Part shown: piece after piece, positions 41,402 through 56,965 of the stretch
How the letters are laid out: each line of letters starts with the position of its first letter
Numbering within the stretch: the stretch's first letter is position 1
Source of the DNA: Candidatus Thorarchaeota archaeon
GTDB lineage: Archaea > Asgardarchaeota > Thorarchaeia > Thorarchaeales > Thorarchaeaceae
DNA length: 64,000 nucleotides
NCBI GenBank assembly: GCA_020348985.1
Contig: CP070761.1
Coordinates: forward strand, 2,891,006-2,955,005
Reading direction: 5' to 3'
Position numbers and translations under genes: made by a program
Notes under the pieces: model-generated
Seen by the model: the letters and a program-made list of their open reading frames with translations, nothing else
Told to the model about the DNA's origin: nothing
Database searches by the model: none

Positions 41402-44098
41402 GTGACTGCCTTGCCGGTCTTACATTGCCCCAAGTGTGGTACGACACTAGACATTCGAAGGACAAAGTTACTCGTGCCGCGCGACTACTTGGAGACTCCG
41501 AAAGGTGGTAATGTATGGTCTGTATCTTGCAGGACCTGCGCGGTTGAACTGCTAGTTGATGCATCAACAAAAGATCTGTTTGACGCGTATGATGCATACT
41601 CCAAAGCTCTGGACTCAGGCGCACTGGATTCTAGGTATGACGGCCCTGCACCAGCTCCATTGGAACCATTAGACGCTGCTTCTCCCGATTCTCGAACCAT
41701 AGACAGATGGGCGCGGCCTAAGAGCGCTGTCCGTCAAACAAAGGAAGAGATTGAGAAGCTCATCAGGCTCGGGGGACTGACAACAGAAGAAGTCCCCTTC
41801 TCAGTGCTCTCCTTGTTGAATGAATCTGAAGAACGACTTGTTCACTACCGTCATTTGCCGCCTACGGATGCGCTCTATGGCAGCAAACTTCCAGACCTGA
41901 AACTTCCTACAAAACTCAAGGAACACCTCATTTCAAAGGGTGTCGAACAGCTTTATGCCTTTCAGAATGAGGCGTTTGATAGGATTGGAGCTGGTCATAA
42001 CGCGGTTGTTGTAGCTCCTACCGCCCAGGGAAAAACCGAGGCATTCATTCTTCCGTTGATTCGGAACTTGCTAATAACAATTCAAGATTCATTTAGGAGC
42101 CCAGGAATACGTGCTTTGCTCATCTACCCAACCAAAGCTCTGGCAAGAGACCAGTTCGAAAAGATAAAGCAGATGTGCAAGGCGTCTGGTCTGACAGCCG
42201 CGCTCTTTGATGGAGATGTCTCTCAATCGCAGCGGCGAAGAATCTACGAGAGACCTCCTGACCTTCTTCTGACAAACCCAGATGTCCTTCATTACCATCT
42301 TGGATGGGAGGGGTCACAGCTTGTTCCATTACTGAGCACGGTGAGACATGTTGTTATTGACGAGATTCACCTTTACACAGGTTCGCTTGGTGCCAATGTG
42401 TACTATATCCTGAAGCGACTTGGACTGGAAACAGACGAGCCGTTCCAAATGATTGGGGCTTCTGCTACAATAGCTAATCCAAGAGAACACACTGAACAAC
42501 TATTCGATTCGTCAGTGGAACTCATAGAGTCGCAGACCGCCAAACGTGGTCCGATTCACTTCATGATGTACTATCCTGAGCGAAGCAGTAAGTACAGTAT
42601 GATTGTCAACTTAGTTCGAAGGTTGAACGAGCAGGGCTTTCGAACACTCGTATTCGGGAACACTCATTCAGAGGCAGAGCTACTTAACAGAATCTTGGGG
42701 CGAATCGGAGTAAGCTCAAAGGTTCACAGGGGAGGTCTCTCGAAGTCGTATCGAAGCAAGGTGGAAGAGGAGTTCAAGTCTGGGCGGTTACCAGTTCTTG
42801 TCTCTACGCCCACTCTCGAGCTCGGGATTGACATTGGTCACCTTGATTGTGTAGTTAGCATGATTGTATCAGTCACTCGCCTTACACAACGTATCGGACG
42901 TGCCGGCAGAAAAGGCCAAGAAAGCGTTGCGATTCTAGCGCTTAGGGACAATGACCCAATATCAACATTCTACAGGTTTCAACCCGAGAAGTACTTCACC
43001 GATATTGATTCCGCGTACGTCGAACCCGGCAACGAGATTGTGGCCCGATATCAGCTCATAGCGGCAGCGATGAGTGGAAAAATGAATACAGCAGACTTCC
43101 CATATCAGCTCAAAGTCATAAAGAACCTGCAAGAGGAAGGATTGGTGCAGATTCTTGATGATGGCCAGGTACGAGTCGTGGATATGGATAGGGCAAGAAA
43201 GGAATGGCGGGGCTACAACATTCGGGGGATTGGAGACACTGTTGAGATTCGTCTTGGTAACAAGCTCATAGGAGACAGGTCAATGCCCATGGCGGCGCAA
43301 GAGCTCCATCCGGGAGCCCTCTATCTCCATGGCGGAGAGACCTACATGTCTGTACAATATGACTATAGACAGGGTTTTGGTAGAGCGAAGGTGGTCAAGA
43401 ATCCTGACTCCAATGAGCACACTCGTCCAATGTACTACTCCTCCCCGAGGATTGTAGAGGTCCTCGAACGCCATAAGATCCTTGGTATGAAAACAATCTA
43501 CTGTACACTAGAAATGACTCAAGTTGTTCATGGCTATACAAAGGTACAGACCTATCCAAGGCAGGTCCTTGGACAGTTTGATCTGAGCCCCGATTTGGTG
43601 TATAAGTATCTGACAAGAGGATTCGCCTTTGCCGCTCCGTCGCCAAGTAAATCGACTATCGACGAGGGGCTAGAGATTATTGAACGTCAGAATGCTGATC
43701 CCGCCTGGCTCGTTGGAGGTGCTTTTCACGCGTTGGAGCATGTTGTCATAGAGTCAAGCGGAATGTTGACTGGCGGAAGCACCCGAGAGATTGGAGGTGT
43801 GTCAATGGGTGACTCCGGGATTATCTTTGTGCATGATGGGTCTCCAGGAGGTAGCGGTGCATCAAGACTTCTTTACAAGAGACTGGATGAGGCCTTTAGA
43901 CGAGTGGAAGCAATTCTTGCTAATTGTGAATGCGAGGCCATCGACGGGTGTCCGTTATGCACATATTCGTATCAATGTGGGAACAACAATTCACCTCTAT
44001 TCAAGAATGGAGCCTTGGACAGTGTTAGGCAGATTCTTGAGCGTTCAGAAACTGACGTGGACACAGAAGGGTACATTGGATATCAGCCAATGGTATGA
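41402..44098 (+). CDS. SF2 helicase with DUF1998 (MrfA/Hrq1/SftH-like) and N-terminal Zn-ribbon
   Basis: APTAQGKT, YPTKALARDQ, DEIH, LELGIDIG, QRIGRAGR and C-terminal HALEH...CEC...GCPLC. Start is uncertain. Confidence 0.92.
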   Translation: MTALPVLHCPKCGTTLDIRRTKLLVPRDYLETPKGGNVWSVSCRTCAVELLVDASTKDLFDAYDAYSKALDSGALDSRYDGPAPAPLEPLDAASPDSRTIDRWARPKSAVRQTKEEIEKLIRLGGLTTEEVPFSVLSLLNESEERLVHYRHLPPTDALYGSKLPDLKLPTKLKEHLISKGVEQLYAFQNEAFDRIGAGHNAVVVAPTAQGKTEAFILPLIRNLLITIQDSFRSPGIRALLIYPTKALARDQFEKIKQMCKASGLTAALFDGDVSQSQRRRIYERPPDLLLTNPDVLHYHLGWEGSQLVPLLSTVRHVVIDEIHLYTGSLGANVYYILKRLGLETDEPFQMIGASATIANPREHTEQLFDSSVELIESQTAKRGPIHFMMYYPERSSKYSMIVNLVRRLNEQGFRTLVFGNTHSEAELLNRILGRIGVSSKVHRGGLSKSYRSKVEEEFKSGRLPVLVSTPTLELGIDIGHLDCVVSMIVSVTRLTQRIGRAGRKGQESVAILALRDNDPISTFYRFQPEKYFTDIDSAYVEPGNEIVARYQLIAAAMSGKMNTADFPYQLKVIKNLQEEGLVQILDDGQVRVVDMDRARKEWRGYNIRGIGDTVEIRLGNKLIGDRSMPMAAQELHPGALYLHGGETYMSVQYDYRQGFGRAKVVKNPDSNEHTRPMYYSSPRIVEVLERHKILGMKTIYCTLEMTQVVHGYTKVQTYPRQVLGQFDLSPDLVYKYLTRGFAFAAPSPSKSTIDEGLEIIERQNADPAWLVGGAFHALEHVVIESSGMLTGGSTREIGGVSMGDSGIIFVHDGSPGGSGASRLLYKRLDEAFRRVEAILANCECEAIDGCPLCTYSYQCGNNNSPLFKNGALDSVRQILERSETDVDTEGYIGYQPMV

Positions 44099-44099
44099 G

Positions 44100-46058
44100 A
44101 TGAGGTCATCAAAGATGTCGATCTTCCGGATTGAGAGAGGTCATGACGGTCCTGCTAGGATTGGCCGCTTAACACTTGATGAACTCGAAACGAGCACTCC
44201 GTCTCTTGCCGGGCCCCCGCAGGAAGAAAGCCATTGGCTCACCTATTCCGTATACGAGAGATCATCATCCAGTGATTCTGCTGCATCTATGATTGCACTC
44301 CCAACAATCTTTGCATCTCATGATGAAACAGACACCCTCACCCATAAGAGCAGTTTAGTACTCTTGCCTTCAATCCCAGGGTCCTCGTCGCTAGGGCAAG
44401 AAATGGCTGAACTACTGCTGTCTTGGCAATTGGGTTTTCTCAGGGAACGTCCTAAGTCCGTCCCACCACAGCACTGTGTTGTCAGAATTCCGGTTGGAAT
44501 CGATACCGTTCTTCTGAAAGAGTATCTCTCACAGTTTTCTGAACTTGGGGTCCGTTCTGCTTCTTTCTTGTTGAATAGTGAGCTTGGTAGTGATGACTTT
44601 AGCTCAGTGAAGTTGAGATCCGCTATCCCGCGAAACTGGCTTGCAATAGCTTTGGGGCGGATTGATCCACATTTGCTCCCCCTACTGATCTACCTGGGCT
44701 TTGATGTGATTGACATTGGTCGAGCTTTCTCGGCTGCTGCGAAGAACGTTCGGCTCTGGCAGGTGACAAATGAGAAAGTGCTTGAAGTAGACCATCAAAG
44801 ATTCTGTTCGTGTCGCCACTGTATATCCATAGACGACTTTGGAGAAACCGCACGTGATAACCGACTCGAGACTCTGACGGGCCACAACATCGACATGTAT
44901 AGGCAAGTGATGTCTGAGAGCATAAGCAAAATGCATGATGGACAACTGCGATGGCTTGTCGAATCCCGTACACATGCATCACCTTCGATGACATCATTAC
45001 TACGAAGAATCGACAGGGAAATCTACGAATTCCTAGAGGAGTTCACGCCAACAATTGGGCAGGGTGTTCTTCCTCTCATAGGTCCTGAATCATATCACTC
45101 CCCAATTGTCAGAAGGTTCAGGGAAAGGCTTGTAGAAAGATATGCTCCTCCCCCCCACAAGAGAATCGTGCTACTGCTTCCGTGCTCGGCACGGAAACCA
45201 TACTCAGATTCGAAGTCCCATCGACGTTTTAGCAGAGCAATTGAAAACGGAATCGGGCGGAGTGAGTCTTCAATTGCAGAGACTATCATCACGTCTCCAT
45301 TAGGGATAATTCCTCGGGAATTGGAGCGCGTGTATCCCATCGCACAGTATGACATTCCAGTGTCTGGCGACTGGGATACCGAGGAGACCTCAATCGCAGT
45401 TGACGCTCTCGTGAAACATCTTGCGAAGTTCAGCGATGAGGCTGTTGTCTTGGCTCATGTATCTGGAGGTTATCAGACCATAGTCAACGAGGCCGAATCA
45501 CGAATCAAACAGAGCATTATCTATACATCCTCGGGCCACTCGACAGGAAGTCGCTCTTCATTGGAATCTCTCACGGAGGTTCTTCAGGATCTGAAGTCTA
45601 AACTAGAAATCAGAGCAACAGAACAGAAACGACTTCAAGACACACTACGGTCAACCGCCGATTTCCAGTTTGGAAAAGGGACCGGGAGTCTGCTCATACC
45701 AGATAGTGCACATCTCAAGGGGAAGCTATACCATATGGTAACATGCCAAGTTGAAGAAGTGCAGACGTGCAGTTTCATTGGATCTTCAGGCGCGCTCTCT
45801 CTCACAATGGACGGTGGTGAGAGAATTGCGCCTCTAGACCGGTACGTGGTTCGGTTTGAGGGGGCTGAGATCAAAGGCGGGTCGATTTTTGCTGTGGGTG
45901 TCAATGAGGCCGACCCTGTTATTCGACCAGGAGATGAAGTAGTCGTGGTGGGCAAGGACAACACTGTCATGGCGGTAGGCAAAAGCGAGATGTCTGGTCC
46001 AGAGATGTGTGAGTTTGAGAAGGGTCGTGCAGTCAGCATTCGTCACAAGAGGAAGTGA
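44100..46058 (+). CDS. arcS: Archaeosine synthase subunit alpha (ArcS)
   Basis: DGPARIG N-terminus, LLPCSARKPYS.SKSH, TSPLGIIPRELE..YP...YDIPV.G.W and a C-terminal PUA domain. Confidence 0.92.
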   Translation: MRSSKMSIFRIERGHDGPARIGRLTLDELETSTPSLAGPPQEESHWLTYSVYERSSSSDSAASMIALPTIFASHDETDTLTHKSSLVLLPSIPGSSSLGQEMAELLLSWQLGFLRERPKSVPPQHCVVRIPVGIDTVLLKEYLSQFSELGVRSASFLLNSELGSDDFSSVKLRSAIPRNWLAIALGRIDPHLLPLLIYLGFDVIDIGRAFSAAAKNVRLWQVTNEKVLEVDHQRFCSCRHCISIDDFGETARDNRLETLTGHNIDMYRQVMSESISKMHDGQLRWLVESRTHASPSMTSLLRRIDREIYEFLEEFTPTIGQGVLPLIGPESYHSPIVRRFRERLVERYAPPPHKRIVLLLPCSARKPYSDSKSHRRFSRAIENGIGRSESSIAETIITSPLGIIPRELERVYPIAQYDIPVSGDWDTEETSIAVDALVKHLAKFSDEAVVLAHVSGGYQTIVNEAESRIKQSIIYTSSGHSTGSRSSLESLTEVLQDLKSKLEIRATEQKRLQDTLRSTADFQFGKGTGSLLIPDSAHLKGKLYHMVTCQVEEVQTCSFIGSSGALSLTMDGGERIAPLDRYVVRFEGAEIKGGSIFAVGVNEADPVIRPGDEVVVVGKDNTVMAVGKSEMSGPEMCEFEKGRAVSIRHKRK

Positions 46059-47164
46059 GAGCTTTGGAAGATACTCTAGAACGAATTCAGTCGGTCATCA
46101 TAAGCGCAAGTACAAAAGCTCGGGGCTCCTCGATTGCCTTCAGGCGCCAGAGGAATCCAACAAGGCCCGCAGCAAGCTGGATCACAACCTCGCGAATAGG
46201 CAACAGCACTGGAAAGGCGCTCTCGGTGGTCTTCTCGACAATTGGTTGTTCTCATGCAAGAGGAGAGAGTGGTGGTTGTACAATGTGCAGCTACTTACTC
46301 GATGGTACGAGCGTACCTCCATCAGCAGCAGAACTTGTCGAGCAATTCGCGGCTGCGATGTCGAAGCTTGATGATGAAGAGGCGCCACTGTCAGTTAAGC
46401 TATATACTAGCGGAAGTTTCTTGGATTCTGAAGAATTTCCTTCGGAGGCAATGAAATCTGTGCTTGAAACAATCGCTCAAGATCCGCGAATAACCCAGGT
46501 TGTGGTAGAGTCAAGACCTGACTACGTCACCGAGTCCAACGTCAGTCTTTTGCGTTCAATACTTGGTTACCGACATATCGAGATCGGTATAGGCTTGGAG
46601 AGCATGAATGAAAGAGTCCGTATGCTCTGCGTAAACAAGGGGTTCTCCTCAGATGACTTTGAGCAGGCGCTTCTGACCGCGAAGCAACAGAACATTGGTG
46701 TGAGAGCATATGTCCTGATTAAACCTCCATTCATGACAGAGCGGGATGCAATACTCGACTCAGTTCTTACTGTAAGGCAGAGCGCAGCTTTGTGGGCTTC
46801 CACAGTATCAGTTAACCCTGTCAACATACAGAGACATACCTTGGTAGAGCAGCTCTGGACAGATGGACTATACAGACCTCCGTGGCTCTGGACGGTGGTA
46901 GAAGTCCTGAAGAGAGGGCACTCAGAGATTCCTCAAGAGACGAACTTGGTCTGCGATCCTGTAGCTGCCGGAAAGGCACGCGGAGCTCACAATTGTGGTA
47001 GATGTGACCAAGCTGTTATCAGAGCAATTCGGGATTTCTCTTTGGATCAAGACCCCAAATCACTTGAAGGTCTGGACTGTGAGTGCAAGACTGACTGGGA
47101 GCACGTCCTTGCGCATGAGGATGTTTCTCTCTATGTCCACTCGGATAGACACGAAGGTAGATGA
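46055..47164 (+). CDS. raSEA: Archaeosine biosynthesis radical SAM protein RaSEA
   Basis: GC........GGCTMC, YTSGSFLD, ESRP, KPPF, YRPPWLW and RGAHNCG.C. Overlaps the arcS stop. Confidence 0.92.
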   Translation: MRALEDTLERIQSVIISASTKARGSSIAFRRQRNPTRPAASWITTSRIGNSTGKALSVVFSTIGCSHARGESGGCTMCSYLLDGTSVPPSAAELVEQFAAAMSKLDDEEAPLSVKLYTSGSFLDSEEFPSEAMKSVLETIAQDPRITQVVVESRPDYVTESNVSLLRSILGYRHIEIGIGLESMNERVRMLCVNKGFSSDDFEQALLTAKQQNIGVRAYVLIKPPFMTERDAILDSVLTVRQSAALWASTVSVNPVNIQRHTLVEQLWTDGLYRPPWLWTVVEVLKRGHSEIPQETNLVCDPVAAGKARGAHNCGRCDQAVIRAIRDFSLDQDPKSLEGLDCECKTDWEHVLAHEDVSLYVHSDRHEGR

Positions 47165-47212
47165 GAAAGGGTTTTAGGAATCGGGATAGCTGTGTTTCCG
47201 AGGTTATGGATT

Positions 47213-47572
47213 ATGACTGATTACATAACCAAGGTGAGCTTCTGGTTTAGCAGTGAGGGCGCATCACCCGCTGATGTCATAAGGCGACTCCTGGACATGG
47301 GGTTCACACCGGTGAGGGGTGCGTACGATTTCATCTACCATCATGAATCAAAGGAAGGTATGTCTGATTCTGACCTGAGTAGTGCAATTCTGGAGGTTTC
47401 CGATGCGCTACATGCAGCGCTTTCCGGTTTCAAAGTATTCTACACCATGGCGACACATCCTGCAGACGAACTGGCTGATTATGTTCCACTCGCCGATATC
47501 GATGCCGAGCTTGAGGCAACAAGAGCAGAGCTCAGGGCTTTTGAGGACGATTCGTTTAGTGATGAAGAATAA
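47213..47572 (+). CDS. Conserved-looking archaeal hypothetical protein
   Basis: FSSEGASP..V...L...GF.PV.G.YDF.Y pattern with an acidic tail. Confidence 0.7.
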   Translation: MTDYITKVSFWFSSEGASPADVIRRLLDMGFTPVRGAYDFIYHHESKEGMSDSDLSSAILEVSDALHAALSGFKVFYTMATHPADELADYVPLADIDAELEATRAELRAFEDDSFSDEE

Positions 47573-47574
47573 GA

Positions 47575-47602
47575 TAGGAATGGGGGAACTCCCCCATCCC
47601 TA
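47575..47602. terminator. Hairpin between convergent genes
   Basis: TAGG..TGGGGG-AACT-CCCCCA..CCTA inverted repeat directly after a stop codon. Confidence 0.5.
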
Positions 47603-47623
47603 GTGGGAGATTGTGGGTGAATA

Positions 47624-49408
47624 TCAATCAGAGATCACTTCTGGCTCTCGACGTTCATACTCGCCTTCGCCGCGAACTGTGACTCTGATCTTCTTCTTAT
47701 CTTCGGGATTCATTCGTTCGAAGATCCAACCTAGATTCGTGCCGCCATCAGCTGCAGCCTGAGAGGGTTCGAGGTCCTCAGGTTCAACAGACACAAATTC
47801 GAAGTCTTCAGGTATCCAGTCAGTGACACGGACATTCTCTACAGTTACCTCGCCTTTGTTCTCAATGACGAGCTGAACGATGTACTCTCCGGTTTCAGAT
47901 CCCTTGTTGATTCCTTTCTTGGCCGAGATGCGCCTCTTCTTGTAGACTACGCCTATCTTGTGGCCATCTTCGTCACTGGCTATCTCAGCTTCAAGACCTG
48001 GCGGATATGTATTTGCCAAGCAACGGATGGGCGACGGATATTCCTTCTCCGGCCGGCTCTTCCAGGTCATGATAGAGTAGTTGATTCTCATGGTCTCGTC
48101 AGGTTCTAATTCCCCTACCGAGTCTTTGAGGTTTGATAACTTAACTGAAAGTGTGTGTGGAGAGTCTGGGTCTTGATCGTCTGGATCGATTGCTATCTCC
48201 ATTTCTCCATCATACTTGTCTCCTCTCACAAAGACCTCTACATACTCGCTTGTTGGAGGCATAATATCGTCAGGAAGGTTGTCAAGAACCTGAACTTCAT
48301 TCAATTTGGCGGAACCGGCATTCGTTACTTCGATTGTTACCTCAACAGGAGTCTTGTCGAAGCTGGCAACCTTGGGAGGGTCAAACGTCTTGCTATATTC
48401 TATCCTATATACCGGCACAAGCTGAGGCGTCTTGTCTATGGTGCCAAGTACCCTTTTGGTGACAACGTTGGTCGGCGTATAGATGATCTCTTGGGTACAC
48501 TTTGGCGGAGACTTGCTTGTGACTTCGAATGAGCTTCTCCACTCATCATTGGGAGCAAGCTCCACAGCCGGCGCTTCATCTATCATCTTCTCCTTATCGC
48601 CGCCGTCTTCGGGTTCTAAGTAAACCTCTGCCTTATCCAGTCTTACCACAAGATCTGACTCGTTGCTGCACTCAAGTGTGCACTCCCAGCTGTTGGGCTC
48701 AGTCTCTGCAGACTCAATCCCAGCCAAGAATTCTGTTAGGGCTGTCATGTCAGGAGCAAGAACCGACCTAGTCTGTTCTTCTCCTCGATAGGTCACAACC
48801 ATTTCGCCTGCGCCCTTGGCATCAACATCTTTGACTCGCCCGCTGGCCTTGATTACTACTGTCGACTCCTCCTGGGGGTAGATTACGAAATCCTTCCATA
48901 CTACAACGCCTGTGCCTTCGTCAAACTCTGCTGTACCTGATGTCACTTCATCAATGGTGATTTCTGTGAGCTCCGATGGGATCGTCTTGTTAAGGACTAT
49001 GTTGTCTATCTGCCCATCTGTTTCATTTTTCAGAGTGATTGTCATCTTCACAGGGTTGTCTTTTCCAAAGGCATATGCCCAGTGAGGTTCTTCGGTTTTC
49101 ACTTCTTCACATGTGTCAAAGACCTCTGTCAGTGTCAATATCGGTGCCTTTGCCGAAACATCGTACGTGGTGTCCCATCTTCCTCCTGCATCGACTTCGC
49201 CAGCAGGAATCGTCTCTTCACCAATGTTTGTTCTATCTCGCGTGTCGCCCAGGAGCACTCGTACGTTCCAGATTCGACTCTTCTCAGACACGTTTTTGAC
49301 ACTTAAGACGCCTGACACCTCGATTTCAGAGAGACCCGAATGCTCATCAAGCTGAGCCTTCTCCGTTTCTTCTATGTCTATTACGACCGTCTTGTGTTCA
49401 CTCAACAC
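47624..49408 (-). CDS. Cytoplasmic all-beta protein: MHD-like N-terminus plus Ig-like (DUF11-like) domains
   Basis: 594-aa acidic protein with no signal peptide or TM and repeated I.V.N.G....N.V.V.D.LP motifs. See findings. Confidence 0.75.
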   Translation of the reverse strand: MLSEHKTVVIDIEETEKAQLDEHSGLSEIEVSGVLSVKNVSEKSRIWNVRVLLGDTRDRTNIGEETIPAGEVDAGGRWDTTYDVSAKAPILTLTEVFDTCEEVKTEEPHWAYAFGKDNPVKMTITLKNETDGQIDNIVLNKTIPSELTEITIDEVTSGTAEFDEGTGVVVWKDFVIYPQEESTVVIKASGRVKDVDAKGAGEMVVTYRGEEQTRSVLAPDMTALTEFLAGIESAETEPNSWECTLECSNESDLVVRLDKAEVYLEPEDGGDKEKMIDEAPAVELAPNDEWRSSFEVTSKSPPKCTQEIIYTPTNVVTKRVLGTIDKTPQLVPVYRIEYSKTFDPPKVASFDKTPVEVTIEVTNAGSAKLNEVQVLDNLPDDIMPPTSEYVEVFVRGDKYDGEMEIAIDPDDQDPDSPHTLSVKLSNLKDSVGELEPDETMRINYSIMTWKSRPEKEYPSPIRCLANTYPPGLEAEIASDEDGHKIGVVYKKRRISAKKGINKGSETGEYIVQLVIENKGEVTVENVRVTDWIPEDFEFVSVEPEDLEPSQAAADGGTNLGWIFERMNPEDKKKIRVTVRGEGEYERREPEVISD

Positions 49409-49481: not shown

Positions 49482-50180
49482 TCAGGACAGCTCATGTTTG
49501 AATTCGTTCCCAGCCGCCCACTGAACTTCTAGTACTTGACCTTCCTTCATCACAAGCGGCATAGTGTTTCGTGCGAACTGATCAATATACTTACAGAACT
49601 TCTTTGGCTGGTCGTCGTCGGTCCATCTCATAGGAATCCCTATCTGAGGTCCGACGTCTATACAAAGACTAACTGCGTCCTTTACTGGGAACACTCCGTC
49701 ACCTCCGACTGGGGCAATGACGATGTTTGCCTCAAGTGCTCCAAATGGGCCCCTCACCATCGAATCGCCGATGTAAGAGACCTTCATCTTTCCGATTTCT
49801 ATATGCAGGCCTAAGTTTTCAGACTTCTTGCCTGACTCTGGATCTTCTCTCTGCAAAGAGAATGGAGTTATCTTCAGGCCTGGTATCTCGTAGGGTGCTT
49901 CGTTCTTCAAGACGTGAAGAAGCCAAGGCTTAGCACCCTGCTCCTTCACTTTCTCGACAGCAAGTTCGTTTCCTAGAAACCATGCCTTGGCATTTGCGGC
50001 AATCGTAGTAGCATTCCCGACTGCATCGTCGTGGTCATTAGTGGCAACGATGACTCGGATATCATAATCATCGGGCACCACTGTATCTCCATCCCAGATT
50101 CCAGGATTGAGTAGAACTGATGTTTCATCAGACTGTAGTGCGAACGATGTCTTTCCGAAGTACGTTACCCTAAGCAACAA
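49482..50180 (-). CDS. MBL-fold protein (UPF0173-like, degenerate metal motif)
   Basis: VTYFG..SF.L, ATNDHDDAVG, YIGDS, PVGG and IPMRW motifs. Confidence 0.8.
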   Translation of the reverse strand: MLLRVTYFGKTSFALQSDETSVLLNPGIWDGDTVVPDDYDIRVIVATNDHDDAVGNATTIAANAKAWFLGNELAVEKVKEQGAKPWLLHVLKNEAPYEIPGLKITPFSLQREDPESGKKSENLGLHIEIGKMKVSYIGDSMVRGPFGALEANIVIAPVGGDGVFPVKDAVSLCIDVGPQIGIPMRWTDDDQPKKFCKYIDQFARNTMPLVMKEGQVLEVQWAAGNEFKHELS

Positions 50181-50413: not shown

Positions 50414-51757
50414 ATGAGAGTAATCCATCACAACGAAAAATCACAGTTGGCGAGGGTTCGTATGCTCGAGAAGATTCTCACTGATAGGTTCAGGAAGCTT
50501 GTTAGAGCAGTTCTTACCGACGTAAGGAATCAACAAGATCTCAGAGACGAGAAGGAGTTTGCAAAGGATGAAGAAAGAATAAAGAACGAGCTCCTTGACG
50601 ATATTGTTCCCTGCCCTGCCAATGAAGTGCTTGATGAGGACTTCACAGTAGCTGCCGTAGATGGGTCCGGAACCGAGAACTTTGGTATTCTGGACGATGT
50701 TCGTCTGCATCTAGTGAGCACATCTGTTGTAGTACTGCAAAGCAACACGCGTAGGGGCACTCTGTTTGAGCCAATGGATCGCGCCCAACTGGAGTCTGAG
50801 CTGAATCAGGAGCAGCCACATCTTGACATGCATTGGCATTCCGGAGTACGGAATGATGCGAGAGACAAGCTGGCAGCATCGCTTTCCGACATCTACCCTA
50901 ACAAGTCAGTGACAGACCTCATTGTGCACTTCTTCCAAGACTATCTAGGCCCACATGTATCCAGCTTCTCAGACATCGACTCTACTGATTACGCCAAGCA
51001 CAAGTCCAAGCTAGAGTCGATTCAGGGGCTCATTTCTCGAGCAGGCTTTCTGACAAATACAGCTGTTCACGATGAGCTTAGAAGGGTGTCTGAGTACGCA
51101 GCAGCCCGCACTGTACTGATAAGTGAAATACGACCGAAGTATATTCTGCTAGACGGTGCACTGAGTGTGTTCATGCATTTTGTACTAAAGTATCCTTCAA
51201 TGCCTAGCGGATTCATGTTGAGAGAGCTGTGCAGCCTTTCTCGAGAGCGCAACGTGATTCTGTGCGCAGTAAGCAAGAATCACACTATTCCTTTTGCCCA
51301 TCGAATAGCCAAAATGGCTGAAGAGAAGTTTGGGACTGGTTCGAAGTGGTTCTGCCTTCTACCCTCTCAGAAGGATCCCGGTGGAGGACTTCATATCTAT
51401 AGTGACAGAACATACATCCCGCCTCGTTTGGCTGTTCCTTATCTCTTCAGCTTCAGTGAAGACAATCGCCCGTCCAGAATCGACTTCGATCGAGTGTGGT
51501 GGAAAAAGAACATCTTCGTGCGCGATGATCCGGCGAAAACCCGCGAAAAAGAAAAGGCGCTGTTCCAAGAGATAGAATTCATGTCCCGGGATGCACGATG
51601 GTATGGATACCCCGTTGCTCTTGCCTTGGCACACGAAGAATGCAAGCTCAGCTACGAAGATCTTAGAATGGCCAGGGAAGTCTTTGCAGATGTACTTCAT
51701 GAGCTTGGCGCAGACGTAAGACGATCAACGCCAATGAGAGAGGATTATGGACTATGA
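50414..51757 (+). CDS. nurA: NurA nuclease
   Basis: AAVDGS, ILLDGAL, AVSK and GYPVALALAHE motifs, in an operon with herA. The start may be ATG 50462. Confidence 0.88.
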   Translation: MRVIHHNEKSQLARVRMLEKILTDRFRKLVRAVLTDVRNQQDLRDEKEFAKDEERIKNELLDDIVPCPANEVLDEDFTVAAVDGSGTENFGILDDVRLHLVSTSVVVLQSNTRRGTLFEPMDRAQLESELNQEQPHLDMHWHSGVRNDARDKLAASLSDIYPNKSVTDLIVHFFQDYLGPHVSSFSDIDSTDYAKHKSKLESIQGLISRAGFLTNTAVHDELRRVSEYAAARTVLISEIRPKYILLDGALSVFMHFVLKYPSMPSGFMLRELCSLSRERNVILCAVSKNHTIPFAHRIAKMAEEKFGTGSKWFCLLPSQKDPGGGLHIYSDRTYIPPRLAVPYLFSFSEDNRPSRIDFDRVWWKKNIFVRDDPAKTREKEKALFQEIEFMSRDARWYGYPVALALAHEECKLSYEDLRMAREVFADVLHELGADVRRSTPMREDYGL

Positions 51758-51778
51758 TACGATTGGGAGGTTGATGAA

Positions 51779-53548
51779 TTGAAGCTAGACAAAAACGCCC
51801 TTGGAACGCCATATGGAAGGGTGGGAGTTGGCAACCAGACGAATCTCGAGATAATCGGAAACAACAGCGATGTGAGTGTTGGCGAGATATTCATGATATA
51901 CTCAAGTAGGGATGGGCACGAACGAGTCTTCTTCTTCCGAGTATTAGGTCTCCAGAACTACCTACGACGAGTTGATGATGTCTCAGAGATAGCGGGCACC
52001 CTTATGGTTGAAGGTGAGTCGTATTTATCCGGAATCGAGCGTAACATGCTTCTCTCACTAGACGGGAGAATGCTCGGTTACGCAGAACAGGAACGTGGGA
52101 AATGGGTCTTCAGATCCCCCCGAAGGTTGCCAGACCATCTTGCGTTTGTCTATAGGCCTCTTCCAGGAACATCTGACGAGACCGTAAACCTGATGCTCTC
52201 CTCACAGATTGACGGTGAGGTTTTCGTGGGTGATTTGCAGGTCGGCGAAGCAACACTTGATGTTCCAGTCATGATTCCCGCAGAATTCCTACCAATGCAT
52301 GTGGGCATCTTTGGCTCTACGGGGGCTGGAAAAAGTAATCTCATGATGGTGCTGATCAAATCTTTCATAGATCACAATCTGGGAGCGAGCCAGAGTAAGG
52401 TAGATTCGAAGCCAAGAATGTCGGCATTCTGCATTGACCCCCATGATGAATTTGCCAAAGGCGTTGACGACCACGGAATACAGAGTGTTGTTGATGCCAT
52501 GGACCAACAGACACGAAGCGATGTCATAGGCGACTTCTACTACTTGACCACCCATCTTCGGGCAACACCTCGTGAGGTCAAGAGATATGCTAGAGAAATC
52601 AATGTACTCTGGAATGAAATCCAGCCAAGGGATCTGTACTCTATCATGGAGTTCACCCCTCAAGGCCAGCTCCTCATTGATTCAGTATATTCCCGAGTCC
52701 ATGAAGGCTGGATTGACCATCTTTTGAAGATGGACGAGGACTCTGAAGCAAAAGCTGGAGCTCAGAAAGGCACTCTGCGTGCAGTACAGCGACGTCTTAG
52801 GTTTCTGGAACGGTCCTCCATTTTCAATGATAGTGGCACATCAATTCTGGATGATGTCTTTGAGGCAGCAGAGACCGGTCGGATACTTGTTGTCAACACC
52901 AGCTTGATGAGTGACAGAGAGCAGTTCCTCTTGACAACGGTTGTAGCACGTACATTGTTTGACCTGAGACGAGCGGCCAAGAGCAGCGGGAATCTTGGCG
53001 ACTTTGAACGACAAGGTGAGATGCGTCTACCAAGACCCTTCTTTCAGCGTGTCAAGAACAAGGCACGAGCATACTATGGGAAAGGTGGAACGACCAATCA
53101 GACTGAAATCCGTGATCTCAAGATGCTTCCCGTGATCCAGATTACTGTAGAGGAAGCGCCATCGATATTGAATCCCGAACTCATGCGTGGGAGATCTGTC
53201 TTCAAGGACATCTCTCGTCAAGGTCGCAAGTTCAACATCGGATTGCTGGTCGTGAGTCAGCAGGTGAGCGTGTTGGACAACGTCATCCTCAGTCAGATGA
53301 ACACGGAAATCAACCTTCGACTAGGCAATGAAAAAGAAATCAAAGCCTGCATTGAAAACGCTAGTGTAAACATCGCAGGATTTGAGGGGGAGTTTCGCGT
53401 TATGGCAAGAGGTGAGGCGCTGCTAACGGCTTCGTACAGAGAGCTTCCGCTCCCAGTTAAGATTCCACTGTTTGACACAGTCTTTGAACGGGACAAGAGT
53501 CTATACAAGGCAAAGGGAACGAAGAAGAAGGAAACCCATCATCTTTGA
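51779..53548 (+). CDS. herA: HerA helicase/translocase
   Basis: N-terminal HAS-like barrel, HVGIFGSTGAGKSN, IDPH.E, VEEAP and RQGRKF.IGL..VSQ. Confidence 0.92.
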   Translation: MKLDKNALGTPYGRVGVGNQTNLEIIGNNSDVSVGEIFMIYSSRDGHERVFFFRVLGLQNYLRRVDDVSEIAGTLMVEGESYLSGIERNMLLSLDGRMLGYAEQERGKWVFRSPRRLPDHLAFVYRPLPGTSDETVNLMLSSQIDGEVFVGDLQVGEATLDVPVMIPAEFLPMHVGIFGSTGAGKSNLMMVLIKSFIDHNLGASQSKVDSKPRMSAFCIDPHDEFAKGVDDHGIQSVVDAMDQQTRSDVIGDFYYLTTHLRATPREVKRYAREINVLWNEIQPRDLYSIMEFTPQGQLLIDSVYSRVHEGWIDHLLKMDEDSEAKAGAQKGTLRAVQRRLRFLERSSIFNDSGTSILDDVFEAAETGRILVVNTSLMSDREQFLLTTVVARTLFDLRRAAKSSGNLGDFERQGEMRLPRPFFQRVKNKARAYYGKGGTTNQTEIRDLKMLPVIQITVEEAPSILNPELMRGRSVFKDISRQGRKFNIGLLVVSQQVSVLDNVILSQMNTEINLRLGNEKEIKACIENASVNIAGFEGEFRVMARGEALLTASYRELPLPVKIPLFDTVFERDKSLYKAKGTKKKETHHL

Positions 53549-53552
53549 GTGA

Positions 53553-54869
53553 ATGAATATGACGGTTCGAATTGCTCACATTTCAGACACACACCTCGGA
53601 ACGAGGTTCCGGTCAGGCATCAAACAGAATGTCTGGGCCGAAGAGATGAGAATCCGTCTGCTAGAGAATGACTTCTATGAACGATTCGAAGAAGTGTTCC
53701 AGAGAATCGCCAATGCCGACCCTCCTGTTAAACTGGTCATTCACTCGGGAGACTTGTATGATACGCCGACTCCCAACAACCCAATCCAGCCGCCAGTCGT
53801 TGCACGTGAAGTTGCAATCTCAGTCTTGAACGAGTTCATCGAAAAAACAGGCATTCCCGTTCTTGCCATTGAAGGGAACCATGGTCTCTACAGAACACTG
53901 AAGGTATCATTACTTGACTCGCTTAGCCTAGCTGTAGAGGGTTTAGATGTCTTCACACAGGTTGATCTAATCAACGCGCTTCGAGATGACAAGCCGCTGA
54001 AGAAGAGCTATGATGACCTCGAAGTCTTCTGCTTCCCATTCATAGATCATGCTGTTCTGGAAGCCACTGACAAGCTTGCTGATTTCAATGAATGGATCAC
54101 TACTCAGCAAACGCCTCGAAGTGATGTTCCATCCATTGGTGTTGCACATGGAATGAGTCAGGACAAGTCATTATACTCCGCCATTCTAAGCATGGGATAC
54201 GACTACGTTGCACTTGGGCATGACCACATTCAGCAGAAACAATCTGCAAGAGCGTGGTACTCCGGTTCAATTGAGCGATGGAGGTTCGATGAAGCTAATC
54301 ACAAAAAAGGGTACTTGATCGTTGAAGTTGCGCCTGGAAAGCAGCCTAAGGTTACCCCCACGCTTTTTGAGTTCAGTAGGCCTGTCTTCGATGAAGATAT
54401 CAGTATTGAGCCTGATGACACGGTGGAATCGGTAATCGCAACTGTTGAATCGTGGCTGCAAGACAAGGGTTTGGTCGCTAAGTGGAACCCTGCAACAGCT
54501 GCTCGAGTTCGACTTACGTTCCAAGGAGAGTCCCCTCGATTAAGTGGACTCGATCTGAACAGCGCAATGGAACTATTCAGAGCTGAGGTTCTTCGCGATG
54601 AATCTCGTTACAATGTGGTCCAGCTAGTTTGGCCACCCAAGAGATCAGTCATCGACCATGACTCAGCAGCCTACCCCGAGATTGTGTCCGAGTATCTCAT
54701 CGAAGATCCTGAGCAAGACTTCAGGAGCTATCTGGAATCCGAGGAGCTGCCTGAAGAATATGATTCAGAGAAGCTGATTTCGATAGCTGTAAAGGCACTA
54801 CAGTTTGCGGTCTCAGGAAAGGGAGAGAAGCTCACACCTGAGCTAGTATTTGAGGAGGAGAAGACTTGA
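53553..54869 (+). CDS. mre11: Mre11/SbcD nuclease
   Basis: HISDTHLG, GDLYD, GNH, AHG, YVALGHDH and YSGSIE...F.E motifs. Confidence 0.92.
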   Translation: MNMTVRIAHISDTHLGTRFRSGIKQNVWAEEMRIRLLENDFYERFEEVFQRIANADPPVKLVIHSGDLYDTPTPNNPIQPPVVAREVAISVLNEFIEKTGIPVLAIEGNHGLYRTLKVSLLDSLSLAVEGLDVFTQVDLINALRDDKPLKKSYDDLEVFCFPFIDHAVLEATDKLADFNEWITTQQTPRSDVPSIGVAHGMSQDKSLYSAILSMGYDYVALGHDHIQQKQSARAWYSGSIERWRFDEANHKKGYLIVEVAPGKQPKVTPTLFEFSRPVFDEDISIEPDDTVESVIATVESWLQDKGLVAKWNPATAARVRLTFQGESPRLSGLDLNSAMELFRAEVLRDESRYNVVQLVWPPKRSVIDHDSAAYPEIVSEYLIEDPEQDFRSYLESEELPEEYDSEKLISIAVKALQFAVSGKGEKLTPELVFEEEKT

Positions 54870-56965
54870 GGTTGCTCAGCATCGAGTTAAGGAATTTCAA
54901 ACCTTTCAGACACCTCAGGCTTCCTGAAGACGAAGACGCCGTTCTCCCTGAAGGTCTGATAATAATCAGGGGCGCGAACTCAACTGGCAAGTCTTCTCTG
55001 TTTGATGCAATTCTCTGGTGTCTATGGGGCTCTGATGCTGTTCTAGCCACCAATGACGAACTCGTCAACTTCTCATCCACACATTGTTGGGTAGACCTAG
55101 TGATTGAAGTTGATGGCACGCGATACAGGTTGAAGCGCGAATTCAGTAGGGCGGACGGAATGTCAGTACTACTCTCTGTGGAGAAGGAGAACGGATGGCA
55201 AAGAATCGCTCACAAGATTTCGGACGTTAGTAGCAAGATTCGGGAAATCCTGAACCTTGATTTGAAACAAGCTCTAGACACACTCCTTGTCAGACAGGGC
55301 GAAGTGGCTAGAATAGCAAATGCGAAGCCCACAGAATTGCGCAAGCTTCTGGGCGAAGTCTACAACATAGAACTAGTCAGGCAGATGGGGTCCCAGCTCG
55401 AGAATCTAGAATCAGAGCTTGACATCAAGATTGGTGTCCTCAATGGTCAGTATGTTCCTCCTGGTTACATTGAGGATGAAATCAAACAGATCAGACAAAA
55501 CGTCGAATCGTTTGAAGACTCCCAAAAAGAGATTGAAGGAAGAGTAGCACAACAAGAAGATAATCTGAAGGGTCTTCCAACCGAAGACTCGATTGAGGAG
55601 CTTCTGGAAAATCAACGTGAGATTGACCAAAGGAGGACAACATACGAAGCGACAATGGTTGACAGGGATCAGTTTCTAACGGATGCAGGGGTCGCAGAAG
55701 CAGATGAACGGGTAGTAGCCAAGAAGCTGGATCTCTTGCGCAAAGAGCTTGTTCGAAACAAAGAGGAACATGAGACTACTCTCGCAAACATAAGCAACAT
55801 CGACAAAGAGATTGGAAGCATTTCTGGAACGGAAGATGATCTTCGTAAGAAAATTGAAACCCTCGAAACCGTTGACGTCAAAGGTGACTCTCCTGCAGAG
55901 TGCCCGACTTGTGCAAAACCTCTAACTCTGGAGCATCGTGACGAGATTCTAGTCGAGTATCGTGCAACGATTGCAGAAGGCAAGAGAAAGTCGAAAGAAC
56001 TTGCTGAGGAACGGCGAGAACTTGTTGAGTCGAAAGAGAAGAATGAGACGCGAATCCGTGACATCGAATCCGCGATGGACGCATTGGATAGACTCGCTGC
56101 AAAGCAAAAAGATGTAGTTGACAGAAGGAATGCGCTAGAAGAGTCTGAAGAGAAACTGAAATCGGCTCTCTCCGATCTTGGCATAAAGGACATTGAGAAG
56201 CTCCTTTCTAAGCATTCTGCTCGTACACTATCCGAATTGTATAGTCTCGCAACTCAATTGACCTCCGACCTCGAATCTCTGAATAGGGAGCGCGAATCGA
56301 TTCAGAAGCAAATAGAGACCCAAACACAAACCATAGAGCGGAAGACAAGAGATATTGCAAGGATGAAGGAAATAGCTGCAGAGCGTGATAACCTCAAGTC
56401 CCTTCTCAATCACACAAAACATGTTCGTCTGAAGCTTGTCAGCGGGTTTGTGGCGGACTACGTGGTCCAGAAGAGGTTGATTGGGATCATCAGAGGGGCA
56501 ACTAATCCCTATATTCGATCTTTCACAAACGGCCAATACACCAATATCGACTTTATAGCAAAAGCGGGCAAAGGTCGTGGGGGTGCTGGCTTGGTCCTGG
56601 AGGTTCGTGACGAGCGAGACGTGGCGAAGAAGAAGTCATCACAATTGAGCTTTGGAGATAGGACAGCTATAAGCTTGGGACTCAGACTAGGAATAAGCAA
56701 GACGATGAGCAGTATACGTCCTATGAAGGACAGCCCTGCAATCTCACCAAGAATTCGCTGTGTGATGCTCGATGAACCGTTGGCGGGTTTGGACCAAACT
56801 CGCCGCTCAGAAGTCGTGCGAAGTCTAGTCGATGACCTTTCTTTCAAACAGATATTCCTAATCACTCACACTGATGTTCAAGAATGGCAGGGCGTGTCTA
56901 TGATTGACGTAAGAAGTGAAGGTACTGCCAGTGTGGCAGTACTCAGGGAAGGGTCTGAAGGCTAA
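54866..56965 (+). CDS. rad50: Rad50/SbcC ATPase (short)
   Basis: L.NFK, GANSTGKSS, Q-loop VRQGE, central CPTC hook, LSFGD, LDEP..GLD and ITH motifs. Confidence 0.92.
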   Translation: MRLLSIELRNFKPFRHLRLPEDEDAVLPEGLIIIRGANSTGKSSLFDAILWCLWGSDAVLATNDELVNFSSTHCWVDLVIEVDGTRYRLKREFSRADGMSVLLSVEKENGWQRIAHKISDVSSKIREILNLDLKQALDTLLVRQGEVARIANAKPTELRKLLGEVYNIELVRQMGSQLENLESELDIKIGVLNGQYVPPGYIEDEIKQIRQNVESFEDSQKEIEGRVAQQEDNLKGLPTEDSIEELLENQREIDQRRTTYEATMVDRDQFLTDAGVAEADERVVAKKLDLLRKELVRNKEEHETTLANISNIDKEIGSISGTEDDLRKKIETLETVDVKGDSPAECPTCAKPLTLEHRDEILVEYRATIAEGKRKSKELAEERRELVESKEKNETRIRDIESAMDALDRLAAKQKDVVDRRNALEESEEKLKSALSDLGIKDIEKLLSKHSARTLSELYSLATQLTSDLESLNRERESIQKQIETQTQTIERKTRDIARMKEIAAERDNLKSLLNHTKHVRLKLVSGFVADYVVQKRLIGIIRGATNPYIRSFTNGQYTNIDFIAKAGKGRGGAGLVLEVRDERDVAKKKSSQLSFGDRTAISLGLRLGISKTMSSIRPMKDSPAISPRIRCVMLDEPLAGLDQTRRSEVVRSLVDDLSFKQIFLITHTDVQEWQGVSMIDVRSEGTASVAVLREGSEG

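Follow-up and report, generated by a model that had tools for sequence, protein, structure and literature searches.

The stretch of DNA analysed here, called the window, comprises 64,000 nucleotides of the genome of Candidatus Thorarchaeota archaeon (GenBank assembly GCA_020348985.1, contig CP070761.1, positions 2,891,006 to 2,955,005 of the forward strand). On its reverse strand it carries a gene (Table 1) for a protein in which an N-terminal module is followed by two immunoglobulin (Ig)-like domains of the DUF11 type. The N-terminal module almost certainly has the fold of the mu-homology domain (MHD), with which clathrin-adaptor and COPI coats read their cargo, and it is very probably homologous to the MHDs of eukaryotes. 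On the same strand and 73 bp upstream lies a gene for a protein with the metallo-beta-lactamase (MBL) fold, for which a docking site on the middle Ig-like domain of the MHD protein is predicted.

Table 1. Features of the MHD protein gene and of its upstream neighbour in the window (aa, amino acid residues; ORF, open reading frame)
Feature	Position	Strand	Basis or remark
Gene for the protein with MHD and two DUF11 domains	47624..49408	-	ORF and translation, 594 aa (probably 593 aa), soluble, acidic
MHD-like module, aa ~3-330, two interleaved beta-sandwiches	48419..49402	-	
MHD subdomain B, aa ~116-215, DUF11-type sandwich	48764..49063	-	PF00928 and DUF11 on the same residues
Middle Ig-like (DUF11/pilin-like) domain, aa ~337-487	47948..48400	-	Predicted docking site of the MBL-like protein
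DKTP motif, aa 351-354, core of the predicted interface	48347..48358	-	Conservation tracks the MBL neighbour
C-terminal DUF11 domain, aa ~490-594	47627..47941	-	PF01345, best stretch aa 509-579; TIGR01451, aa 513-540
MBL-fold gene, 232 aa, predicted partner	49482..50180	-	PF13483 Lactamase_B_3, E 2e-15
Degenerate metal motif N-D-H-D-D-A, aa 48-53, replacing HxHxDH	50022..50039	-	Alignment

A preliminary description of the gene, made from the letters alone, had its product as an acidic protein of 594 residues, rich in beta structure and with neither signal peptide nor transmembrane segment, and this is borne out. The reading frame is open, the isoelectric point is 4.43, with 122 Asp and Glu residues against 64 Lys and Arg residues, and the secondary structure assigned by DSSP to the predicted model is all-beta. 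The maximum of the Kyte-Doolittle mean over 19 residues is 0.91, and from this it follows that the protein has no transmembrane segment or signal peptide. The four segments in which a likeness to eukaryotic MHDs had been seen are also present where they were placed, i.e., VVIDIEE (aa 8-14) with KAQLDEHSGLSEIEVSGVLSVK (aa 17-38); GGRWDTTYDV (aa 75-84) with KAPILTLTE (aa 87-95); ITLKN (aa 124-128) with IDNIVLNKTIP (aa 134-144) and SGTAEFDEGTGVVVWKDFVI (aa 157-176); and MVVTYRGEEQTRSVL (aa 203-217). The DUF11-like Ig domains said to follow the N-terminus are recovered by PF01345 (DUF11), which matches three stretches of the protein with 59.9 bits against a gathering threshold of 24.6, and by TIGR01451, with 43.6 bits against a threshold of 24.

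Translation probably starts at the TTG at 49405 and not at the GTG at 49408, because the database protein P0002, which is 100% identical to the window protein, has 593 residues and because the orthologues start with MSE. More than 200 homologues share a constant length, and conservation across the family is about 65% identity. In its own genome, a single contig of 3.16 Mb that is 86% complete, the gene is single-copy. Directly past its stop codon, in positions 47573-47623, lies a G/C-rich inverted repeat (GGGATGGGGGAG ... TTCCCCCATTCC), which may form a hairpin at the end of the transcript.

When the full-length protein is modelled with AlphaFold2 from an alignment of 38 sequences, the predicted local distance difference test (pLDDT) is 89.9, and a Foldseek search with the model finds the MHDs of mu3A, mu2 and delta-COP at target-normalised template modelling (TM) scores of 0.55-0.69. 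So that the result would hinge neither on Foldseek nor on the remaining domains, residues 1-335 were also folded alone (pLDDT 90.2), and this model was aligned to all 48,161 PDB cluster representatives. The MHDs then lie 5-6 Z units above any tandem-Ig protein, and the structural alignment runs collinearly through both subdomains of the MHD and takes in 229 of about 253 residues. The predicted model has the two sandwiches in the interleaved order A-B-A and superposes on solved MHDs throughout the domain. It is about 95 residues longer than the MHD of mu2, and most of the additional residues come after subdomain B. Of the checks that the preliminary description had proposed, the predicted structure thus favours an MHD over tandem Ig domains only, and a profile match to the MHD family exists, below the threshold for the window protein itself. 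Its MHD-like N-terminus stands with respect to fold and homology, but the module extends over aa ~3-330 rather than over the first ~225 residues.

In sequence, the window protein matches PF00928 (Adap_comp_sub) with E 2.2e-5 and 24.4 bits over aa 116-172, aligned to positions 123-180 of the 259 in the profile, and 17 of 38 orthologues match the same family at E<=0.01. When a profile of the Thorarchaeota N-domain (profile A2) is searched against 1.84 billion representative proteins, it reaches only 205 clusters, and among the paralogues reached in this way several exceed the gathering threshold of PF00928 (P0170 with 40.9 bits, P0261 with 40.7, P0241 with 39.7 and P0158 with 34.4). The alignments to PF00928 run from position 12 to 236 of 259 for P0170 and from 16 to 235 for P0164. 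A broader profile (A3) was made from metagenomic representatives and evidently includes Thermoplasmatota-type sequences (E about 1e-70), i.e., it describes an archaeal family and not an Asgard-only one. When A3 is compared with all 177,635 distinct PDB sequences, the top 26 matches are all MHD chains, with the mu subunit of adaptor protein complex (AP)-3 as the best (E 1.1e-5) and with delta-COP (E 1.4e-3) among them, followed by mu1 and mu2. The alignment with delta-COP spans positions 5-243 of 245. Since this alignment and those of P0170 and P0164 span both subdomains, the similarity extends beyond the Ig-like subdomain B.

Single-sequence searches give less. With phmmer, the paralogue P0170 finds no MHD in the PDB, and the sole match of the whole window protein among PDB sequences is a heme oxygenase at E 0.075, judged to be spurious. 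A six-frame search of the window genome with PF00928 gives nothing at E<=0.01, which is uninformative, as the window protein is itself below threshold there and the controls also gave none.

The matches to PF00928 coincide in part with those to DUF11. The window protein has a DUF11 match at aa 118-190 (E 6e-4), overlapping the PF00928 match, and at about residues 300-410 of P0241 both families are above threshold, DUF11 with 56 bits and PF00928 with the score already given. Subdomain B and the C-terminal DUF11 domain can be aligned with hhalign over 69 columns (probability 74%, E 2.8e-5). Judged by these comparisons, subdomain B is a DUF11 domain set inside the MHD, and the protein thus holds three DUF11-type sandwiches. 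Such coincidence is also what would be expected if the MHD likeness were convergent or generic, so that the protein amounted to a string of Ig domains of the DUF11/CARDB type, with matches to PF00928 that merely reflected an Ig-like subdomain B homologous to the C-terminal domain; subdomain B is indeed all that most sequence alignments to PF00928 and to the PDB cover. A string of Ig domains would, however, account neither for the collinear two-subdomain structural alignment, with its distance to the tandem-Ig proteins, nor for the alignments of P0170, P0164 and delta-COP, which take in subdomain A, and this alternative is therefore very improbable.

The three DUF11-type sandwiches are what the protein has in common with the DUF11/TIGR01451 repeat proteins (PF01345). 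Those are typically exported surface proteins, whereas the window protein has no signal peptide or anchor and carries one of its DUF11 units embedded as subdomain B of the MHD. The comparison with eukaryotic MHD proteins shows differences of another kind. To the MHDs of the AP-1 to AP-4 mu subunits (AP-2 mu2, 3h85, 9fiw and 1bw8; AP-3 mu3A, 4ikn; AP-4 mu4, 4mdr) the identity is only 10-16%, and the archaeal protein lacks the N-terminal longin domain of the mu subunits. In delta-COP (4o8q, 5fjw) and in the muniscins SGIP1, FCHo and Syp1 (5awr, 3g9h) the MHD is C-terminal, behind a longin or F-BAR domain, while the archaeal MHD is N-terminal and is followed by two DUF11 Ig domains. Of the MHD proteins used for comparison, those of AP mu and delta-COP type have no such domains.

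Consider now the MBL-fold gene. The preliminary description had suggested that distribution and gene neighbourhood be followed across Asgard genomes, and this was done. In 25 of 26 fetched loci, from four families of genomes (f1, f2, f15 and f16), the MBL gene adjoins the MHD gene upstream and on the same strand, with identities between the MBL proteins of paired loci down to 29-33%. The lone exception is locus L022 (G368:C1:383000-397000), where the MBL-like gene is absent upstream of the MHD gene and the start region is instead overlapped by an oppositely oriented ORF of 294 residues. At 16 loci from seven other families there is no MBL neighbour. In the window, the MBL gene has a TTTATAA box some 70-75 nt ahead of its listed start, and the 73 bp that separate it from the MHD gene contain no obvious box of this kind, for which reason the two genes may be co-transcribed.

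In the alignment, the HxHxDH motif (e.g. SHEHKDH) and the His ligands further on are intact in the MBL orthologues of f15 and f16. The Thorarchaeota copies, among them that of the window, have lost all the His ligands: the motif reads NDHDDA, and His has become Arg at the LKHGP and IPMH positions. Since the ligands are lost and the Thorarchaeota protein is nevertheless about 60-65% conserved, the copy in the window is, by its sequence, a catalytically degenerate pseudoenzyme.

When the MHD protein and the MBL-like protein of the window are modelled together, a complex is predicted with an interface score (ipSAE) of 0.66 (0.66, 0.67 and 0.63 in separate runs), compared with 0.00 for the best control; as a rough guide only, since the alignments were made for this analysis, 58 of 80 solved complexes and 2 of 110 mismatched pairs attained this mark. 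The runs share at least 84% of their contacts, and the pLDDT of the partner is at least 89. The predicted interface consists of residues 351-354, 383-389, 412, 445 and 447 of the middle Ig domain and of MBL residues 166-175 and 194-202, and it thus lies off the MHD. Its DKTP core is near-invariant in lineages with the MBL neighbour (one D-to-N change, in L038), including families that are only ~34% identical overall, while it is conserved in none of the 15 aligned sequences from lineages without the neighbour. Over the whole interface, the identity is 0.53 against a background of 0.33 in distant lineages with the MBL neighbour, and 0.22 against a background of 0.28 in lineages without it. On the strength of these models, the chance that the MHD protein binds its MBL-like neighbour is about even.

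One way to read the pair is as an enzyme with its targeting subunit, where the MHD-DUF11 protein would recruit substrates to an MBL hydrolase that is active in f15 and f16 and has decayed in Thorarchaeota, with the complex kept there for a regulatory or structural role. The ligands retained in f15/f16 and lost in Thorarchaeota, the gene order held across four families and the predicted complex are all in line with such an arrangement. The MBL subfamily has matches to Lactamase_B_3 and B_2 only, however, with no known substrate or activity; many lineages have the MHD protein without an MBL neighbour, and the complex model covers the Thorarchaeota pair only. A targeting subunit is therefore unlikely.

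The explanation that is favoured here, and that is held to be somewhat probable, is a scaffold with MHD and DUF11 domains that docks the MBL-like neighbour. The protein would be a cytoplasmic, acidic, all-beta interaction scaffold of three modules. Its middle Ig domain would dock the MBL-fold product of the upstream gene, and the MHD would be left free for another ligand, possibly a short peptide motif of the kind that eukaryotic MHDs bind. The MHDs of delta-COP and the muniscins bind WxW and DPF motifs, and in mu2 the Asp that forms a hydrogen bond with the Tyr of the cargo is D176. In the alignment of hidden Markov models, VFLDVIE of mu1 falls on VVIDIEE, and D176 of mu2 corresponds to D11 of the window protein, which is kept in at least 90% of the orthologues. 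By analogy, the archaeal MHD might bind a peptide motif too, but this is doubtful.

Several observations weigh against the scaffold and the homology on which it builds. The window protein stays under the gathering threshold of PF00928 (24.4 against 31.6 bits), and all structures used are predictions. A full-length profile made from Thorarchaeota only (A1) is without any PDB match at E<=10, so that the sequence link to eukaryotic MHDs is transitive and goes via the broader profile. Among the residues of the YxxPhi pocket (F174, D176, K203, W421 and R423 in mu2), the sequence places only D176 as matching, and F174, a residue of the Tyr pocket, corresponds to V9 (V or I in the orthologues) and is not conserved. 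As to the neighbour, its binding is a matter of model confidence and not a measurement, and the lineages between which interface conservation is contrasted are related and not independent, which makes this conservation support and not proof. The lineages without the MBL neighbour (f4, f5 and f17-f22) still keep the MHD protein, and the pairing is therefore not its universal function.

The family itself has been catalogued before. Eme et al. 2023 (Nature 618:992; PMC10307638) report in their main text putative homologues of all four AP/COPI subunits and find each of the five domains of AP subunits in one or another Asgard archaeon; their Supplementary Information 4.3.1 and Table S3 list 44 'Adap_comp_sub (PF00928)' candidates, several of them from Thorarchaeota. 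The remark in the preliminary description, that remote adaptor-domain homologues had been reported in Asgard archaea, was accordingly right. The listed Jordarchaeia_GBS07 entry has the N-terminal signature of the window protein (...GVLSVNN.S...RIWN...), and the Jordarchaeales cluster P0125 (592 aa) matches profile A2 with E 3.8e-58 over residues 1-335. There is hardly any doubt that the window protein belongs to the family of Eme et al., and the gene is a confirmation and not a discovery. Their listing is at the level of Pfam, with a 'sparse distribution ... due to the high divergence', and describes neither a structure nor an architecture nor any partner; in their candidates, too, the MHD is not fused to longin. 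Two structure-based papers on eukaryotic signature proteins of Asgard archaea (PMC12962969 and 10.64898/2026.10.28.762692) mention no MHD in their main texts. What is added here is a wide distribution that reaches beyond Asgard archaea, the assignment of subdomain B to DUF11, the finding of no coat partners and, as a modelled element, a pseudo-MBL partner on the Ig domain.

Compared with the sparse picture of Eme et al. 2023, the family-specific profile A2 finds the domain in 284 of 400 Asgard genomes, in 67 of the 90 of high quality and in 76 of the 85 that belong to the family of the window genome. In family f22, 125 of 135 genomes are matched, often with 2-5 copies and with ORFs of ~700-730 residues, in contrast to the single copy of ~594 residues in Thorarchaeota; genomes with such expanded paralogues are, e.g., G175, G162 and G205. 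In other representatives the MHD is found within proteins of 1,000-1,350 residues or beside TPR repeats (P0245). The Asgard-type paralogue P0162 (705 aa) has, in an N-terminal extension of ~110 residues ahead of its MHD, a weak match to IMD/I-BAR at residues 22-103 (PF08397, E 0.003, 17.6 bits, below the gathering threshold), and if this match is real, the order of a BAR-like domain and an MHD would echo the F-BAR and MHD of the muniscins.

The family also occurs outside Asgard archaea. In the ESM Atlas, a Thermoplasmatota DUF11 cluster (TM 0.84 with 321 residues aligned) ranks above the eukaryotic AP-2 mu clusters (TM 0.60-0.62), and P0203, a protein of Marine Group II type that matches A2 with E 1.8e-15, maps to metagenome-assembled genomes of Thalassarchaeaceae and other Thermoplasmatota. 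The MHD family is not Asgard-specific.

With this distribution in mind, consider the possibility that the protein works as a cargo adaptor in an archaeal system of vesicle or membrane trafficking, and is one whose MHD reads the tails of membrane proteins and whose Ig domains act like adaptin appendages. The true MHD homology, the alignment of the Tyr-binding Asp of mu2 with a conserved D11, the strong conservation across the family and the report that Asgard archaea between them contain the five AP-subunit domains (Eme et al. 2023, PMC10307638) would agree with such a role. An adaptor of this kind would be expected in the company of other coat subunits, but a six-frame search of the 3.16-Mb, 86%-complete genome for PF01217 (Clat_adaptor_s/longin, sigma) gives no match at E<=0.01, with none in the controls either. 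There is no PF01217 match within the window protein, where the MHD begins already at residue ~3, and no longin match in the N-terminal extensions of those paralogues that have one ahead of the MHD. The six-frame matches to PF01602 (Adaptin_N) are HEAT-like only (21 bits; 50.6 summed), of a kind that also matches the Bacillus subtilis and methanogen controls. Thus, no sigma or large-subunit partners of the type found with AP mu subunits are detected, and the sole predicted partner is the soluble MBL-like protein. On the Thermoplasmatota side, moreover, about 85 of the 301 genomes sampled, with Marine Group II among them, carry one copy of the full-length domain, and we know of no description of endomembrane trafficking in these organisms. 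When the non-conserved F174 and the neighbouring genes, which serve tRNA modification and DNA repair, are added, a trafficking adaptor is quite improbable, and nothing indicates that the protein is part of an AP/COPI-like coat. The stand-alone archaeal cargo-adaptor-like building block of the preliminary description hence keeps its MHD homology, whereas context and distribution lend the adaptor role no support.

The neighbouring genes are the following. One flank of the MHD gene has a helicase gene, an ArcS-like gene, a radical-SAM gene and a small ORF, and the other flank has the MBL-fold gene and then nurA-herA-mre11-rad50. The ArcS-like gene (DUF5591, TGT_C2 and PUA) is followed by the radical-SAM gene with a 4-nt overlap (window 43791-47164, forward strand), and the two look like the ArcS-RaSEA pair for archaeosine synthesis; the pair is kept in loci L021 and L022. 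The listed start of the ArcS ORF at 43791 overlaps the upstream helicase gene, and homologues align only from residue 109, with the true start probably near 44115. The small ORF (126 aa, window 47192-47572, forward strand) is convergent with the MHD gene, matches no Pfam family and is 59% identical to the ORF at the same position in L021. The operon of nurA-herA-mre11-rad50 type (window 50414-56965, forward strand) is divergent from the MBL gene; its first ORF, of 447 residues, has no Pfam match at E<=1e-3 and has 52-63% identity to ORFs beside herA in L020 and L021. Other notes by the author of the preliminary description flag altered motifs in this operon.

Because the MHD is the module by which coats read cargo, its archaeal homologues bear on the origin of eukaryotic trafficking. 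A family that is commoner than was thought and present in Thermoplasmatota, no detected coat partner and an MBL-like protein placed on the Ig domain together make the MHD weaker as evidence for Asgard coats. It is possible, although this can be proposed only tentatively, that the eukaryotic MHD descends from an older and widespread archaeal scaffold, shared by Asgard archaea and Thermoplasmatota, in which a DUF11 domain was inserted as subdomain B and whose ancestral role was docking of soluble partners, an MBL-fold enzyme for example, and not the sorting of membrane cargo. The MHD would then not be an invention of Asgard trafficking, and the presence of 'Adap_comp_sub' in a genome would be no evidence for Asgard coats. 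The two-protein system of MHD and MBL-like protein is a concrete and expressible one in which to ask what an archaeal MHD binds.

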